Of a DNA stretch of 64,000 bases, positions 34,361-54,570 are shown one piece after another. The stretch lies in contig OY730414.1 in NCBI GenBank assembly GCA_963422615.1, positions 992,001-1,056,000 of the forward strand. Direction: 5' to 3'. Numbering within the stretch: position 1 is the stretch's first letter; every line of letters begins with the position of its first letter. The notes beneath the pieces were generated by a model, which was given only the letters and a program-made list of their open reading frames with translations, did no database searches and had not been told where the DNA came from. Both the position numbers and the translations under genes were made by a program. The DNA is from Longimicrobiales bacterium (GTDB lineage: Bacteria > Gemmatimonadota > Gemmatimonadetes > Longimicrobiales > Gaopeijiaceae).

Positions 34361-35797
34361 GTGAAGCTCTACGATTCGCTTCGGCGGGCGGTCTTCGACT
34401 TCGAGCCCCTTGATGCCGGGCGGGTCACGGTCTACGGCTGCGGTCCCACGGTCTACGACTTCGCCCACATCGGAAACTTTCGCGCCTTCATGGCCTACGA
34501 CCTCCTCCACCGCCACCTGCTGTGGCGCGGCCACCCCGTGACCTTCGTGGTGAACTTCACGGATGTGGACGACAAAACGATTGACGGGGCAGCGAAGGCG
34601 GGCCTGTCCTTGAGTGAGTACACGGCGCCCTACATCCAGGCTTTTCTGGAGGACGCGAAGACCCTGGGCATCGCTCCCTTCTCCGGGTACCCCCGGGCGA
34701 CCGCCTTCATACCGGCCATGGTGACCTTCATCGAACGCCTGATGGAAAAGGGGCACGCCTACGTCGCTCGGGACGGGTCCGTCTACTACGTCGTGTCTTC
34801 CTTTGAGGGTTACGGTCGCCTGTCCGGGAACACCGATGACGGCGGGCCCAGGCGCTCCCGGATTGATGCAGACGACTACGAGAAAGGGGACACGCGAGAT
34901 TTCGTGCTGTGGAAGGCCGCCCGGCCCGAGGACGCGGAAGTCGGCGCGGTTTGGGAGTCTCCATGGGGACCGGGCCGTCCCGGTTGGCACCTCGAGTGCT
35001 CGGTCATGGGGACGTCCCTGCTGGGCGAAACGATCGATATTCACCTTGGCGGGGAGGACCTTCTCTTCCCTCATCACGAGAACGAGATCGCCCAATCGGA
35101 AGGGGCGACGGATCAGCCCTTCGTCCGTTTCTGGATGCACGTAAAGCACCTCAAAGTGGGCGACCGCAAGATGTCCAAGTCTGCCGGGAACTTCTACACC
35201 GTGCGGGAACTCCTCACCCAGGGCTGCGATCCGGCCGCGATCCGGTGGGTTCTGTTGTCCGCCCACTACCGCAGCGAACTCAACTTCACCCGAGGGCGAC
35301 TGGACGATGCTGCGACCGCCGTGCAGCGGCTCCTCGACTTTCGCCGACGGGTCAAAGCATGCCCGACGACCGGTCCTGGCCTCGACCTTGCCCGCCGGGC
35401 CCGACACCATTTGGCCGCCTTCAGTCGAGCCCTGGATCACGACTTGAACAGCCCCAGGGCGCTTGCGTCCCTCTGGGCTCTGGTCAAGGACGTCAATATC
35501 GCCCTGGACGACGCCCCGGGGGGGATGGCTTACCAAGACCGGGAGGCGGTCCTCTCGGCGCTGGCGGATATGGATCGGGTGCTGGGGGTTCTCGGCTTGG
35601 CCGCCGGGGGCGGGGAAGTCGGCGAGGAGCTGGAAGACCGGATCCGACGCATGGTGCGTGCCCGCGATCGAGCCAGAGCCAGTCGCGACTTCGCGGCGGC
35701 GGATCGCATCCGGGCTGAGCTGGCGGACTGGGGCGTGCGCCTTGAGGATACCCCGGAGGGGACCCGCTGGAGCCGCATCCTTTCCGCCGGCAACTGA
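34361..35797 (+). CDS. cysS: Cysteine--tRNA ligase
   Basis: CGPTVY..HIGN, GRPGWHLECS, KMSKS. Confidence 0.96.
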   Translation: MKLYDSLRRAVFDFEPLDAGRVTVYGCGPTVYDFAHIGNFRAFMAYDLLHRHLLWRGHPVTFVVNFTDVDDKTIDGAAKAGLSLSEYTAPYIQAFLEDAKTLGIAPFSGYPRATAFIPAMVTFIERLMEKGHAYVARDGSVYYVVSSFEGYGRLSGNTDDGGPRRSRIDADDYEKGDTRDFVLWKAARPEDAEVGAVWESPWGPGRPGWHLECSVMGTSLLGETIDIHLGGEDLLFPHHENEIAQSEGATDQPFVRFWMHVKHLKVGDRKMSKSAGNFYTVRELLTQGCDPAAIRWVLLSAHYRSELNFTRGRLDDAATAVQRLLDFRRRVKACPTTGPGLDLARRARHHLAAFSRALDHDLNSPRALASLWALVKDVNIALDDAPGGMAYQDREAVLSALADMDRVLGVLGLAAGGGEVGEELEDRIRRMVRARDRARASRDFAAADRIRAELADWGVRLEDTPEGTRWSRILSAGN

Positions 35798-35849
35798 CTC
35801 GGCGTGCCTCTTCCGTCCGTGGGCTCCTTGTCCCAGCTTCAGCAACTTG

Positions 35850-35922
35850 GCTGACGTAGCTCAGTGGGTAGAGCAGCTGATTTGTAATCAGCAGGTCCGG
35901 GGTTCGAGTCCCCGCGTCAGCT
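35850..35922 (+). tRNA. tRNA-Thr(TGT)
   Basis: GCTGACG/CGTCAGC acceptor stem, anticodon loop TT-TGT-AA, GGTTCGAGTCC. Confidence 0.95.
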
Positions 35923-36056
35923 CTGACGAGAAGCCCTTGGGGGTGGGTTGGTGTTTTCGCACGGGTGTGTTAGCTTCCACTGCTGTACTCCATGCGGATC
36001 GCCCGGCCGTGTTTTCCCAGAGCGCCTTCGGGCTCGCCGGATGGATGACGTTTCTT

Positions 36057-36139
36057 GGTGGGGTACCGAAGCGGCCAACCGGGGCAGACTGTAAATCTGC
36101 TGGCGCATGCCTACGTAGGTTCGAATCCTACCCCCACCA
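36057..36139 (+). tRNA. tRNA-Tyr(GTA)
   Basis: GGTGGGG/CCCCACC stem, CT-GTA-AA loop, long variable arm. Confidence 0.95.
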
Positions 36140-36168
36140 TTGGGAGGACTTTCAAGTTCGCCCTGACC

Positions 36169-36242
36169 GCGGGAGTAGCTCAGTTGGCTAGAGCGTCAGC
36201 CTTCCAAGCTGAGGGTCGCCGGTTCGAGTCCGGTCTCCCGCT
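36169..36242 (+). tRNA. tRNA-Gly(TCC)
   Basis: GCGGGAG/CTCCCGC stem, CT-TCC-AA loop. Confidence 0.95.
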
Positions 36243-36292
36243 CTGGTACGGCCCGGTGGGATCGGATCCAGCCGGACAAGTCGGAAAGAAGT

Positions 36293-36364
36293 GCTCTGGT
36301 AGCTCAGTGGGAGAGCGCTTCCTTGGTAAGGAAGAGGTCGCGGGTTCGATCCCCGCCCAGAGCT
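36293..36364 (+). tRNA. tRNA-Thr(GGT)
   Basis: GCTCTGG/CCAGAGC stem, TT-GGT-AA loop. Confidence 0.93.
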
Positions 36365-36430
36365 TGGCGGGACCCGCGTGAGGGACTGTGTTCCCGATAA
36401 GTAGGCGAACAGAGAAACAGGTAGGCTAAC

Positions 36431-37683
36431 CTAAGGGGGGGTAGGAGAGAGATGGTGAAGGTGGTATTTGAGCGGAGCAAGCCGCATGTAAATGTAGGGA
36501 CGATAGGGCATGTGGATCATGGGAAGACGACGTTGACGGCTGCGGTGACGTTGACGCAGTCGAAGTTGTATGGTGGGGAGGCGGTGGGTTTTGCGGAGAT
36601 AGACAATGCGCCGGAGGAGCGGGAGCGGGGGATAACGATAGCGACGGCGCATGTGGAGTATGAGACGGAGGGGAGGCATTATGCGCATGTGGATTGTCCG
36701 GGTCATGCGGATTATGTAAAGAATATGATTACGGGTGCGGCGCAGATGGATGGGGCGATATTGGTGGTGAGTGCGGCGGATGGGCCGATGCCCCAGACGC
36801 GGGAGCACATATTGTTGGCTAGGCAGGTAAATGTGCCGTACATCGTGGTATTTTTAAACAAGGTAGACATGGTGGATGATGAGGAGTTGTTGGAGTTGGT
36901 GGAGTTGGAGGTGAGGGAGTTGTTGAGTGAGTATGGGTTTCCGGGGGATGATTTACCGGTGGTTCGGGGGAGTGCGTTGCGGGCGTTGGAGAGTGGGGGT
37001 GAGGGGGAGGAAGCGGAGTGTATAGGGGAGTTGATGGAGGCGGTGGACGGGTGGATACCGGAGCCGGAGCGGGATGTAGACAAGGCGTTTTTGATGCCGG
37101 TGGAGGATGTATTTTCGATAACGGGGCGGGGGACGGTGGCGACGGGGCGGATAGAGCGGGGGGTGGTTCGGAAGGGTGAGCAGGTGGAGATTGTGGGGAT
37201 GGGTGGGGATCGGATGACGGTGGTGACGGGGGTGGAGATGTTTCGGAAGTTGTTGGAGGAGGGAAGGGCTGGGGACAATGCGGGGTTGTTGTTGAGGGGA
37301 GTGGGGAAGGAGGAGGTACAGCGGGGGCAGGTGTTGGCGGCGCCGGGGTCGATTCGTCCTCACACGAGGTTTCGGGCGGAGGTGTATGTGTTGGGGAAGG
37401 AGGAGGGGGGGCGGCACACGCCGTTTTTTGATGGGTATCGGCCGCAGTTTTATTTTCGGACGACGGATGTGACGGGTACGGCGAAGTTGCCGGAGGGGGT
37501 GGAGATGGTGATGCCGGGGGACAACGTACAGATGGAGGTGGAGTTGATCACGCCGGTAGCGATGGATGAGGAGTTGCGGTTTGCGATACGGGAAGGCGGT
37601 CGGACCGTAGGTTCCGGCGTTGTGACCTCCATCACCGAATAATACCCCCCACCCCAATACACCCCACCCCAAAACCCTTAAGG
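36431..37683 (+). repeat. tuf cassette, copy 1 (direct repeat of 53293-54546)
   Basis: Identity starts at CTAAGGGGGGG upstream and ends at CCCTTAAGG downstream; only homopolymer-length differences seen in the flanks. Confidence 0.93.
36452..37642 (+). CDS. tuf: Elongation factor Tu (copy 1)
   Basis: [33 protein letters not shown]. Confidence 0.98.
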
Positions 37684-37740
37684 GCCTGGCAGAACCCCGT
37701 GCCTGATCCAAAGCCACGCAGCGCTGCCGGGAGATTCGAA

Positions 37741-37947
37741 ATGGGACGTTTAGCAAAAGCCAAGACCTTCATGGAGGAATGCGTAGCCGAGATGGAAAGA
37801 GTCACCTGGCCGGACCGGGATCAGCTCCGGAACGCCACCTGGGTGGTCATCCTCTTCACGCTCCTCATCTCCGCGGTCATATGGATCATGGACATCATCT
37901 CCAGGGCGGTCATCGTCGACTTCATTATGGGGTTGTTCCGGTCTTGA
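37741..37947 (+). CDS. secE: Preprotein translocase subunit SecE
   Basis: EMERVTWP..QL..AT plus single TM; between tuf and nusG. Confidence 0.9.
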   Translation: MGRLAKAKTFMEECVAEMERVTWPDRDQLRNATWVVILFTLLISAVIWIMDIISRAVIVDFIMGLFRS

Positions 37948-38480
37948 GAAGCGACGAACGCTGGTACGCGCTTCAGACCCAGGCGCGGCACGAGAAGCGG
38001 GTTCGGCGCTTGATTCAGCAAGAGATCGAAAAAACTTCCGGCCTTGAGGAAGAGATCCTGGAAGTCTTGGTTCCGGAGCAGGATGTGGTTGAGATCCGGA
38101 GGGGGAAGCGGGTCACGGTTACCAAGCCCATGTACCCGGGGTACGTACTGGTGCGGATGGTTCTGAACGAGCGCACCGAACACGCCATCGGTGCGATGAA
38201 GGGAGTAAGGCTCGTGAGTCAGGGCGGAAGCCCCCGGCCTCTTCCCGACAGCGACATGAAGAAGATACTCGGCATAACGGACGAGGACGAAAAGAGCTCC
38301 CGGGACGAGATCCCCTTCCGGGTCGGCGAAGCGGTGGAAGTGATTCAGGGCCCCTTTACGGATTTCTCCGGAACGATTCAGGAAGTTGATCCCGACAAGG
38401 GAAAGGTCAAAGTCGAGGTATCCCTCTTCGGCCGCCCGACGTCGGTGGAGCTGGATTTCACTCAACTGAAGGGCTTCTAG
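37944..38480 (+). CDS. nusG: Transcription termination/antitermination factor NusG
   Basis: [33 protein letters not shown]. Confidence 0.95.
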
Positions 38481-51153: not shown

Positions 51154-53244
51154 ATGCCCAGGATCACACCGCTTCCCCGGCTCCGAAACATCGGGATCAT
51201 GGCCCACATTGATGCCGGGAAGACCACGACCACGGAGCGGATCCTGTTCTACACCGGTCGGCTTCACCGCATGGGAGAGGTCCATGAAGGCGCGGCCACC
51301 ATGGACTGGATGGAGCAGGAGCAGGAACGGGGAATCACCATTACCTCCGCCGCCACGACCGCATTTTGGCGGCGGAACGGGTCGGAATACCGAATCAACA
51401 TCATCGACACGCCGGGCCATGTGGACTTCACGGCGGAAGTGGAGCGGTCTCTCCGGGTCCTGGACGGCGCGGTCGCGGTCTTTTGCGCGGTAGGGGGTGT
51501 GGAACCCCAGTCCGAGACCGTTTGGCGCCAAGCCGACCGGTACGGAGTGCCGCGCATCGCCCTCGTCAACAAGATGGACCGAACCGGCGCCGACTTCGAG
51601 CAGGTCGTCGAAATGATGCGGAGCCGACTCGGCGCCAATGCGTTCGCGGTCCAGTACCCGCTGGGCGAGGCGGACCTCTTTACGGGCGTGATCGACATCG
51701 TTGCCATGAAGGCGGTCGTATGGGACGACGACTTGGGTGCCACCTTTGCCGAGGTTGGTATCCCGGAATCCCTTCTCGGGAAGGCCGAAGCCCTCCGCCA
51801 CGAATTGGTGGAGGCAGCCCTGGAGCATCACGACGGACTCCTGGAGAAGTACTTGAGCGGCAAAGATCTGACGGAAGACGAAGTGCGCCAGGCGATCCGT
51901 GCGGCGACAGGGTCGGGTGCCTTCTTCCCCGTGTTCTGCGGCTCCGCTTTCAGGAACAAAGGGGTGCAGGCTCTCCTGGACGGTGTCATCGACTACTTGC
52001 CTTCGCCGGCGGATGTGCCCCCCATTGAAGGCCGCACCCCTCGGGGGGACGAGCCCCGGGAGACCCGGGAGGCGGCCGACGACGCCCCGTTCGCCGCGCT
52101 TGCCTTCAAGATCATGACGGACCCGTTTGTCGGTAGGCTCACGTACGTGCGCGTCTATTCGGGGTTCCTGCCCCGAGGCAGTCGGGTCTTCAATGCCACC
52201 CGGGGCCGAAAGGAGCGGGCCGGGCGTCTTCTCCAGATGCACGCAAACAAGCGGGAGGAGCGTACAGAGGTCTATGCCGGGGACATCGCCGCGGTGATCG
52301 GCCTCAAGGGAGTGCGCACGGGGGACACCCTCTGTCACCCGGAGCACCCGGTCATCTTGGAGGCGATGGACTTCCCGGAGCCGGTAATCGCCGTCGCGAT
52401 CGAACCCCGGACCAAGGCCGACCAGGACAAACTCGGGATCGGCCTGGGCCGGTTGGCAGAAGAAGATCCCACGTTTCGCGTGGACACGGATCCCGAAACC
52501 GGCCAGACGATCATCAGCGGAATGGGGGAACTCCACCTGGAGATCATCGTCGACCGCCTGCGCCGAGAGTTTTCGGTCAACGCCAACATTGGCCGGCCCC
52601 AGGTTTCGTACAGGGAAACCATTCGCAAAGCGGCGAGCAAGGTGGAGGGCAGGTTCGTCCGACAGACCGGTGGAAGGGGTCAGTACGGCCATGTCGTGAT
52701 CGACATTGAGCCCGGCAGCGCCGGTTCGGGGTTCGTCTTCGACGACAGAATCAAGGGTGGCACCATTCCCCGGGAGTACATTTCTGCCGTGGAGCAGGGG
52801 TTGAGGGGGGCGCTCGACTCAGGAGTATTGGCCGGTTACCCCATTGTGGATCTCAAGGTGGCGCTCGTGGACGGTTCCTACCACGACGTGGACTCAAGCG
52901 AGATGGCCTTCAGGGTTGCCGGTTCCAAGGCCCTCAGAGAGGCCGTGAGGAAGGCGAGTCCTGTCCTTTTGGAGCCCATCATGGATGTGGAGGTCGTGAC
53001 GCCCCACGAGTACATGGGCGACCTTATCGGCGACCTTGGGGCCCGCCGGGGCAAGGTGGGCGGCATGACCGACCGGGGCGACGCGCAAGTGATCGGCGCG
53101 AGTGTTCCCTTGGGAGAGATGTTCGGTTATTCGACGAGGCTTCGGTCCCTGAGCCAGGGTCGGGCTGTCTTTACCATGCAGTTTTCGCACTACGAGGAAG
53201 TCACCGGGAGTCAGGCCAGGGAGATCGTCCGGACGAGTACCTGA
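51154..53244 (+). CDS. fusA: Elongation factor G
   Basis: [30 protein letters not shown]. Confidence 0.98.
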
Positions 53245-53292: not shown

Positions 53293-54546
53293 CTAAGGGG
53301 GGGGTAGGAGAGAGATGGTGAAGGTGGTATTTGAGCGGAGCAAGCCGCATGTAAATGTAGGGACGATAGGGCATGTGGATCATGGGAAGACGACGTTGAC
53401 GGCTGCGGTGACGTTGACGCAGTCGAAGTTGTATGGTGGGGAGGCGGTGGGTTTTGCGGAGATAGACAATGCGCCGGAGGAGCGGGAGCGGGGGATAACG
53501 ATAGCGACGGCGCATGTGGAGTATGAGACGGAGGGGAGGCATTATGCGCATGTGGATTGTCCGGGTCATGCGGATTATGTAAAGAATATGATTACGGGTG
53601 CGGCGCAGATGGATGGGGCGATATTGGTGGTGAGTGCGGCGGATGGGCCGATGCCCCAGACGCGGGAGCACATATTGTTGGCTAGGCAGGTAAATGTGCC
53701 GTACATCGTGGTATTTTTAAACAAGGTAGACATGGTGGATGATGAGGAGTTGTTGGAGTTGGTGGAGTTGGAGGTGAGGGAGTTGTTGAGTGAGTATGGG
53801 TTTCCGGGGGATGATTTACCGGTGGTTCGGGGGAGTGCGTTGCGGGCGTTGGAGAGTGGGGGTGAGGGGGAGGAAGCGGAGTGTATAGGGGAGTTGATGG
53901 AGGCGGTGGACGGGTGGATACCGGAGCCGGAGCGGGATGTAGACAAGGCGTTTTTGATGCCGGTGGAGGATGTATTTTCGATAACGGGGCGGGGGACGGT
54001 GGCGACGGGGCGGATAGAGCGGGGGGTGGTTCGGAAGGGTGAGCAGGTGGAGATTGTGGGGATGGGTGGGGATCGGATGACGGTGGTGACGGGGGTGGAG
54101 ATGTTTCGGAAGTTGTTGGAGGAGGGAAGGGCTGGGGACAATGCGGGGTTGTTGTTGAGGGGAGTGGGGAAGGAGGAGGTACAGCGGGGGCAGGTGTTGG
54201 CGGCGCCGGGGTCGATTCGTCCTCACACGAGGTTTCGGGCGGAGGTGTATGTGTTGGGGAAGGAGGAGGGGGGGCGGCACACGCCGTTTTTTGATGGGTA
54301 TCGGCCGCAGTTTTATTTTCGGACGACGGATGTGACGGGTACGGCGAAGTTGCCGGAGGGGGTGGAGATGGTGATGCCGGGGGACAACGTACAGATGGAG
54401 GTGGAGTTGATCACGCCGGTAGCGATGGATGAGGAGTTGCGGTTTGCGATACGGGAAGGCGGTCGGACCGTAGGTTCCGGCGTTGTGACCTCCATCACCG
54501 AATAATACCCCCCACCCCAATACACCCCACCCAAAACCCCTTAAGG
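53293..54546 (+). repeat. tuf cassette, copy 2 (direct repeat of 36431-37683)
   Basis: Same boundaries and sequence as copy 1; offset about 16.86 kb. Confidence 0.93.
53315..54505 (+). CDS. tuf: Elongation factor Tu (copy 2)
   Basis: Protein identical to copy 1; follows fusA. Confidence 0.98.
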
Positions 54547-54549
54547 CCG

Positions 54550-54570
54550 ATCCTCCGAATCGGAGGATTT
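54550..54570 (+). terminator. Hairpin right after tuf copy 2 (possible terminator)
   Basis: ATCCTCCG-AAT-CGGAGGAT followed by TT. Confidence 0.45.

Follow-up and report, generated by a model that had tools for sequence, protein, structure and literature searches.

The genes for elongation factor Tu (EF-Tu), tufA and tufB, are known to evolve in concert in Salmonella, in Escherichia coli and across 29 orders, and in the parts of the published accounts covered their identity is limited to the gene plus some tens of nucleotides (nt) (PMC5485169, PMC6053082). In Salmonella, most mismatched tuf heteroduplexes are destroyed by mismatch repair, and the site that is converted depends on the type of mismatch, according to the portion of PMC5485169 covered. 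The present analysis concerns the two tuf copies of a Longimicrobiales bacterium (Gemmatimonadota), which lie in the same contexts within a 64,000-nt stretch of DNA, referred to as the window (G000:C1:992001-1056000 of the genome designated G000, a single contig of 2.57 Mb with 64% G+C). The window holds a translation cluster comprising tRNA genes, tuf copy 1 and nusG, then ribosomal protein genes, rpoB and rpoC, and finally fusA and tuf copy 2. What distinguishes this locus from the described pairs is that a near-total loss of silent C on one strand accompanies conversion. Our comparisons show this bias to be gene-specific, confined to the repeat unit, of a fixation type in which G replaces C, and present where two near-identical copies exist.

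Composition of the tuf genes and the polarity switch

Third codon positions in tuf consist of 0.060 C, 0.670 G, 0.189 T and 0.081 A, and the fraction of C at these positions (C3) is 0.30-0.43 in eleven genes neighbouring tuf. Among 1543 crude open reading frames (ORFs; mean C3 0.409, standard deviation 0.046) both tuf genes have the lowest value (0.06), the next lowest being 0.26. The GC skew of the tuf copies in 600-nt windows is 0.65, against a genome mean of 0.003 (standard deviation 0.078) and a next largest absolute value of 0.39, and the genome's longest C-free run (72 nt) lies within the tuf coding sequence. All 28 Leu codons are TTR, a form that accounts for about 0.14 of Leu genome-wide; all 13 Phe codons are TTT, 11 of the 17 Ile codons are ATA (0.036 genome-wide) and 33 of the 47 Gly codons are GGG. 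The G+C content of third positions is 0.73, which is not above that of the genome (about 0.77), and T at these positions is raised to 0.19. An earlier note, made from the letters of the window, had drawn attention to this poverty in C, to the codon counts and to the span 36431-37683; every count was reproduced, self-BLAST returned a repeat with precisely these limits, and the genome-wide scan of skew and of C3 per gene that it had proposed leaves the tuf copies as extreme outliers (0.65 and 0.06, respectively). The C3 values of fusA, rpoB, rpoC and the ribosomal protein genes (0.30-0.43) are normal or nearly so, from which it follows that the loss of C is not a general trait of high expression.

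The fate of the lost C depends on the synonymous options. At 4-fold sites (Ala, Gly, Pro, Thr, Val) the genome has A 0.10, C 0.44, G 0.35 and T 0.11, whereas tuf (n = 169) has A 0.09, C 0.04, G 0.775 and T 0.10. At 2-fold sites in tuf there are 50 T and 12 C, a 13-fold shift of the odds toward T. Sixteen C survive at the third positions of the first 381 codons and 12 of these are followed by A, as had been counted before; the proposal that C before A marks the context of an enzyme fails, since at the 43 4-fold sites before A there is no C at all (G in 37), and C is kept only at 2-fold sites. There, pyrimidine-ending codons show 11 C to 2 T before an A-starting codon and 2 C to 52 T elsewhere. 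Because C is kept before A only where T is the sole alternative, the rule is to avoid C and to avoid T before A even more. Codon junctions of the type T|A number 5 in tuf against 16.7 in shuffles that preserve codon usage (z = -4.9), and relatives (loci L005, L011, L012 and L038) obey the same rule. Avoidance of nnU|Ann junctions is known as a universal codon-pair bias.

Several candidate explanations were tried and rejected. The 49 tRNA genes provide about one gene per anticodon, with both GNN and CNN anticodons present, so that tRNA supply does not favour NNG codons. Hidden off-frame stops are not enriched relative to codon-usage-preserving shuffles (31 versus 33.2 in the +1 frame, 11 versus 17.5 in the +2 frame), and G-runs, G-quadruplex motifs and Shine-Dalgarno-like motifs in tuf all stand at shuffle levels.

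The bias reverses near the 3′-end of the gene. The best change point is codon 381, at window position 37595, where the share of codons ending in C rises from 16 of 381 to 8 of 15; no permutation out of 2000 attained a likelihood ratio as high. A 44-nt run free of G (C 22, A 17, T 5), the longest such run in the genome, extends over 37638-37681 (54501-54544 in copy 2) and starts in the last 5 nt of the coding sequence. The flip at about 37595 claimed in the earlier note, identical in copy 2, is thereby borne out. On the right of the switch at 37595, base composition complements that of the tuf body: the body has G 0.46, T 0.21, A 0.20 and C 0.13, and the G-free run has C 0.50, A 0.39, T 0.11 and no G. 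Two of the three GAA codons in tuf fall within its last 15-17 codons. Both stretches are bounded by the repeat, the C-free one starting at its left edge (36432) and the G-free tail stopping at its right edge (37681). The sequence shared by the copies runs from 19 nt upstream of the ATG to some 37-43 nt past the stop codon, and the flanks are unrelated.

Relatives exhibit parts of this pattern. In G105 the 79 shared upstream non-coding nt contain 31 G and 14 C, and the unshared DNA beyond has G:C ratios of 35:25 and 33:29. Within the same family, the shared downstream tails of G098 (C 12, G 5) and G009 (C 31, G 25) lean the same way as the tail described here, and that of G024 does not; nor does the tail of G061, in family f4. 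The last 35 codons of many relatives carry a weaker skew than the body does and cannot be separated there from the C-ending codon usage that is normal in single-copy genomes. The idea of a specific RNA structure at the 3′-end was rejected: the minimum-energy fold joins the C-rich tail to G-rich runs lying some 150 nt upstream, but the folding energies do not improve on those of shuffles (z +0.32 and -0.86). The idea that C-rich tails are the general terminator type of this genome was likewise dropped, since, of 51 C-rich, G-free runs of at least 28 nt, no more than 3 outside tuf lie within 30 nt after a same-strand stop codon.

Assembled contigs from three other studies (runs X1, X5 and X6) match pieces of tuf with no differences, so the sequence is not an artefact of polishing or assembly, a source of error that the earlier note had wished to see checked. 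Run X8 contains a related strain, about 4% different in tuf, in which the avoidance of C is kept. Its tuf exhibits 24 differences, 12 of them between G and T and only one creating a C, with 7 transitions and 17 other changes. Different tuf sequences, in loose ends and in contigs of 90-95% identity, occur in runs X1, X5, X6 and X8 as well, and the cultures or samples behind these runs seem to be mixed.

Copy number and copy identity across Gemmatimonadota and other phyla

The tuf genes were located in 90 further genomes of the same phylum, each at least 90% complete. A 48-genome set was composed of one copy with its flanks from 40 genomes plus eight further loci, including that of the window, and second copies were compared for 20 two-copy genomes and for the genome of the window. 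Whether a genome holds a "converting pair" was decided from copy identity, independently of skew. Genome G025 supplied a single illustrative gradient (L019), and no conclusion is based on it.

Among assemblies of at most 20 contigs, all 14 single-copy genomes have a difference in skew between tuf body and flank of -0.10 to -0.03, and in the 14 two-copy genomes the difference is 0.02 to 0.49, with a mean of 0.23. The comparison of single-copy with two-copy relatives suggested earlier thus reveals skew where near-identical pairs occur and none in these single-copy genomes. Where the copies differ at 0-5 nt, 16 of 16 genomes have a body skew of at least 0.14; where they differ at 12-151 nt, five of five have a body skew of at most 0.19, four of them at most 0.09. 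Four fragmented metagenome-assembled genomes (MAGs) appear single-copy but skewed; in three of these, parts of a second tuf turn up at the ends of contigs, and in G042 none do. The contrast recurs within families. In f1 the single-copy genomes G005 and G113 are unskewed and six two-copy genomes are skewed; in f4 the skewed G061 and G069 are nested among unskewed single-copy genomes; and f5 shows the same contrast. In other phyla, nine of ten genomes with a tuf-specific skew have at least two copies, compared with three of ten unskewed GC-rich genomes.

At the 4-fold sites of the tuf body, C and G average 0.47 and 0.45 in single-copy genomes (23 genomes), 0.11 and 0.72 in converting pairs (20 genomes), and 0.38 and 0.56 in diverged pairs (five genomes). 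Replacement of C by G is found in 19 of the 20 converting-pair genomes (4-fold C at most 0.22; 0.31 in G108), and replacement of C by T in some only. Genomes G038, G061 and G098 have 4-fold C of 0.07, 0.09 and 0.12 and 4-fold G of 0.87, 0.90 and 0.77, respectively, with C:T ratios at 2-fold pyrimidine sites of 55:5, 53:3 and 55:1 and Leu CTN:TTR ratios of 23:0, 24:1 and 22:1; G063 likewise has G for C at 4-fold sites and almost no T for C at 2-fold sites or in Leu codons. Across the clade the primary signal is C giving way to G; C giving way to T is a second layer in the most extreme genomes (G000, G046, G104, G043, G054 and G003). Comparisons of substitution spectra among related genomes (13 for converting pairs, 12 for single-copy genomes) are saturated and follow composition, and are hence uninformative.

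Within the genome of the window, the tuf pair is the sole long repeat of near-100% identity detected by self-BLAST. The question raised beforehand, whether other repeats carry the same skew, is answered in the negative for the paralogue pairs of 86-97% identity, which show a skew of only 0 to 0.14.

A proposed bias of gene conversion and its alternatives

The reading that we favour, and to which we give about an even chance, is that the tuf copies evolve in concert by gene conversion that is biased in a strand-specific manner. Sense-strand (here leading-strand) G alleles would spread to the other copy more than C alleles, and T alleles would do so more weakly; silent C would turn into G where this is synonymous and into T where T is the sole option, except where T would precede an A-starting codon. 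As the molecular cause we infer that mismatch repair rejects G/G and G/T, and that C/C mismatches escape. In the parts of the cited studies covered, C/C is unrepaired and G/T among the best repaired mismatches (PMC5416779), G/A and C/T are poorly and A/C and T/G well repaired in Salmonella (PMC5485169), and MutS binds A/C more weakly than its repair efficiency suggests (PMC7672436). The genome of the window possesses genes for both MutS and MutL.

In the heteroduplex the antisense strand of the donor would mostly be paired with the resident sense strand, taken to be the 3′-ended strand where a leading-strand arm has broken or stalled. With the replication origin near 0.49 Mb and the terminus near 1.81 Mb, tuf lies on the leading strand, which makes the sense strand the 3′-ended one when a leading-strand arm is broken. 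A resident C meeting a donor G allele would form C/C, remain unseen by mismatch repair and be overwritten, whereas a resident G meeting a donor C allele would form G/G, be repaired or rejected, and be kept. Heteroduplexes with G/T mismatches would be destroyed and C/A would escape more weakly than C/C, the expected outcome being a strong drive of G over C and a weaker one of T over C. This predicted order agrees with the phylum, in which G replaces C in nearly all converting pairs and T replaces C in some. The spectrum of the strain in run X8 also fits the picture of a conversion bias, differences between G and T being those that make poorly repaired mismatches. If the break lay near 37595, the resident strand to its right would be the minus strand, G would be lost from the plus strand, and the last 87 nt would acquire the mirror composition; we surmise such a break-side origin for the C+A-rich, G-free end. 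This break-start version keeps the geometry put forward in the earlier note and swaps the chemistry.

A wider formulation is tentative, and we hold it to be rather less probable than its opposite. Mismatch-repair-filtered conversion might act as a strand-specific drive on composition, in which the resident single strand keeps G and loses C so that concerted paralogues are rewritten step by step; if conversion started preferentially at a site near the 3′-end of tuf, a mirror-image footprint would be left on either side of that site, and the same process during sister-strand repair of broken leading-strand arms could add to the genome-wide GC skew.

A number of observations weigh against conversion bias as the explanation. 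The tuf tree contains five changes in the "converting pair" state, amounting to four to five independent pairs, in which skew changes in the same direction in a mean of 3.4 and in the opposite direction in about none; these are too few for a sign test of copy state against skew to reach 0.05. Genomes of Stenotrophomonas, Sphaerotilus and Azospirillum hold two equally scoring copies without skew, which means that two identical copies are not sufficient. The model predicts A over T on the sense strand, with T/T escaping and A/A being repaired, whereas A and T at 4-fold sites are about equal (means 0.078 and 0.094); it also predicts a T-rich tail to the right of the switch, whereas the tail is A-rich. 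The 13-fold shift to T at 2-fold sites is large for a pair of mismatches, A/C and G/T, that both count as well repaired. Among the genomes compared, only this one has a clear mirror tail; G098 and G009 have a weaker one, and G024 and G061 have none. Which strand of the heteroduplex is resident is an assumption of the model.

The chemistry originally proposed was deamination, spontaneous or enzymatic, of the two 3′ overhangs of a break or of the displaced strand of an R-loop, with fixation through conversion. The plus strand is indeed G+T-rich to the left of 37595 and C+A-rich to its right, a keto/amino pattern such as C>T and A>G changes on an exposed strand would produce, and T stands in place of C at 2-fold sites (50 T, 12 C) and in each of the 28 Leu codons. 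At 4-fold sites, however, a substitution model that raises C>T alone gives T 0.35-0.55 and G 0.35, where tuf has 0.10 and 0.775, and with no G>C change the T/G ratio cannot drop below the genomic 0.32, where tuf has 0.13. Furthermore, the relatives G038, G061, G098 and G063 have G for C with almost no T for C, C before A has disappeared (0 of 43) from sites at which G is a synonymous option, and the 28 lineage-specific amino acid replacements, with 35 base changes at codon positions 1 and 2, include one C>T and seven A>C. Since the lost C became G and not T at 4-fold sites, a deaminase is not supported, and we consider deamination quite improbable. Of the process outlined in the earlier note, the locus-specific character and the tie to conversion stand, given the repeat bounds and the dependence on copy number and identity, and the deaminase falls on the 4-fold composition (G 0.775, T 0.10). 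A cause running the other way is about as improbable: G+T-rich single strands might recombine better, such that skewed pairs stay concerted and unskewed ones diverge or lose a copy. RecA prefers GT-rich DNA and the Chi sequence is GT-rich, and the association of skew with copy identity is itself symmetric with respect to cause; but unskewed pairs in Proteobacteria stay identical, and both the origin of the skew and its stop at the repeat edges would be left unexplained. An artefact or a foreign origin, that is, a polishing error or recent acquisition of tuf from a donor with G/T-ending codons, is scarcely credible. Nothing except the oddity itself speaks for it, and it is opposed by the exact contig matches from three studies, by a reading frame that is intact with all changes synonymous, by a protein 83-86% identical to that of family relatives in the same gene contexts, and by the graded forms of the same bias that relatives carry.

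Selection on the tuf transcript is unlikely, albeit a more substantial rival. Under this explanation a C-poor, G-rich mRNA would be weakly structured and offer no loading site for Rho, a factor that binds RNA rich in C and poor in G; the antisense RNA would be an ideal Rho substrate, and the tail would serve as the gene's own rut site. Predicted folding of tuf is -35.9 kcal/mol per 150 nt, compared with -59.0 +/- 3.9 in 60 other genes and with -17.6 for the antisense strand, which is rich in C and lacks structure. The genome contains two Rho-like genes, with Rho_RNA_bind domains above the Pfam curated cut-off at G000:C1:125655-125879 (minus strand) and 1481328-1481546 (plus strand) in ORFs of 455 and 528 amino acids; the scan flagged no intrinsic terminator after tuf copy 1; and the rule against T before A shows that fine-scale selection does act on tuf sites. 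Sites of the rut type are usually about 80 nt long, with C well above G and little structure, and the stretch in which C exceeds G, about 87 nt, fits this length. Windows over 37600-37749 have GC skews of -0.40 and -0.25, and the 44-nt G-free run is 50% C. From its composition the tail looks like a rut site, and Rho-dependent termination is putative. Nonetheless, transcript selection predicts neither a dependence on copy number or copy identity nor the loss of skew in diverged pairs; a single tuf carries the whole EF-Tu load, yet all 14 single-copy genomes of at most 20 contigs are unskewed. The other highly expressed genes of the genome are nearly normal, YC dinucleotides (39 versus 34.6 in shuffles) are not depleted beyond the loss of C, C-rich tails after genes are rare (three other runs within 30 nt of a same-strand stop codon), and such a tail is wanting in relatives.

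Genomic setting and relation to known systems

The coordinates of the tuf loci and their neighbours are collected in Table 1. The four tRNA genes upstream of copy 1 represent the classical tRNA-tufB arrangement, and an Rfam scan of 35500-38200 found these and nothing else. The hairpin beyond copy 2 may be an intrinsic terminator, a candidate suggested by the predicted fold and unflagged by the consensus scan. The likeness of the paralogues (0 differences in 1191 nt) far exceeds that of orthologues (83-86% protein identity to family relatives), and the nearest named matches of EF-Tu are from Gemmatimonadaceae and Gemmatimonadota MAGs, at 76-78% protein identity.

Table 1. Features at the two tuf loci, with positions in the window.
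Feature	Position	Strand	Evidence and remarks
tRNA-Thr-TGT	35850-35923	+	ARAGORN, Rfam tRNA
tRNA-Tyr-GTA	36056-36140	+	ARAGORN, Rfam tRNA
tRNA-Gly-TCC	36169-36243	+	ARAGORN, Rfam tRNA
tRNA-Thr-GGT	36293-36364	+	ARAGORN, Rfam tRNA
Repeat unit, copy 1	36431-37683	+	self-BLAST; 99.76% identity to copy 2 over 1254 nt
C-depleted, G+T-rich block, copy 1	36432-37594	+	left start at repeat edge; 16 of 381 codons NNC
tuf copy 1 (EF-Tu, 396 amino acids)	36452-37642	+	Pfam GTP_EFTU, GTP_EFTU_D2, GTP_EFTU_D3; ORF list
Polarity-switched end, copy 1	37595-37681	+	8 of the last 15 codons NNC, then G-free tail; right end at repeat edge
nusG	37779-38480	+	Pfam NusG, KOW; normal codon usage, C3 0.30; downstream of copy 1
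fusA	51154-53244	+	Pfam EF-G domains; normal codon usage, C3 0.43; upstream of copy 2
Repeat unit, copy 2	53293-54546	+	self-BLAST
tuf copy 2	53315-54505	+	0 differences from copy 1 across 1191 nt; three EF-Tu Pfam domains
Polarity-switched end and G-free tail, copy 2	54458-54544	+	alignment, run scan
9-bp hairpin just 3′ of the copy 2 tail	54549-54569	+	fold; copy 1 without counterpart

Other repeats and tRNA genes of the genome also deserve mention. Just upstream of the window, at G000:C1:965288-969757, lie three tandem paralogues of about 1.4 kb, 86-96% identical and without GC skew. An inverted repeat pair (locus L173; G000:C1:1353727-1355900 and 1358564-1360732), 97.2% identical over 2178 nt, flanks a recombinase gene of the phage integrase family; its repeated ORFs weakly match a D12 N6-adenine methyltransferase, and by its sequence the pair looks like an invertible, phase-variable module of the restriction-modification type. 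In GC skew (0.35-0.39 over 1 kb) a part of this pair ranks second among the regions of the genome, with G in excess on the sense strand in each copy. Homopolymer tracts of G or C, about 19-22 nt long, occur at G000:C1:2361855-2361919, 1658011-1658047 and 1173122-1173151, two of them just upstream of ORF starts beside a GAGAGAG-type ribosome-binding stretch like that of tuf; the tracts are candidates for slippage-based phase variation. About 20 of the 49 tRNA genes are packed within 2.3 kb on the minus strand (G000:C1:287968-290279). A tRNA-Sec gene is present and one tRNA-Glu(CTC) call is unusually long at 94 nt (G000:C1:2035115-2035211 and 437707-437800).

The gene tuf is a standard reference for "optimal" codons and a common phylogenetic marker. 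If a conversion bias, and not translation, sets its silent sites in many GC-rich lineages, codon-adaptation indices trained on tuf would be distorted, and DNA-based tuf trees likewise. A new, strand-specific form of biased gene conversion would then join the forces that shape bacterial base composition, and tuf would offer a natural read-out of the exchanged strand and of the point at which conversion starts.

Strand-coordinated clusters of APOBEC mutations form at resected breaks in eukaryotes. The tuf genes resemble these in the switch of polarity at one point, as on two 3′ overhangs, and differ from them in having no C>T signature at 4-fold sites and no deaminase context, and in representing an evolutionary equilibrium, not a mutation shower. 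With replication- and transcription-associated strand asymmetry they share a G+T-rich leading and sense strand and a strand-specific cause; however, genome-wide skew amounts to about 0.03 against 0.57-0.65 in tuf, and here the effect is bounded by the repeat edges, needs a second copy and misfits the deamination spectrum. GC-biased gene conversion is similar as a recombination-linked, non-adaptive fixation bias that alters composition, but it is strand-symmetric and favours G/C over A/T, whereas in tuf G is favoured over C and T over C on one strand (G at third positions 0.67, C 0.06) with no rise in the G+C content of third positions.

The marker-specific effects of mismatch repair come close in that the outcome of strand exchange is set by the type of mismatch, as described in the parts of PMC5485169, PMC5416779 and PMC7672436 covered. 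Those are known as effects on laboratory markers; what is proposed here is a long-term, directional rewriting of a gene. We know of no description of such rewriting by mismatch-repair marker effects. Within the open-access papers and preprints searched, subscription journals not being covered, no account of C-poor or G-skewed tuf genes was found. The portions of the two papers on tuf concerted evolution covered (PMC5485169, PMC6053082) mention no compositional consequence, and the words "skew," "GC content" and "biased" do not occur in the text of PMC6053082 that was available. The concerted evolution of tuf and the effects of mismatch type on conversion are known, and what appears to be new is the link of C loss to copy number and copy identity.

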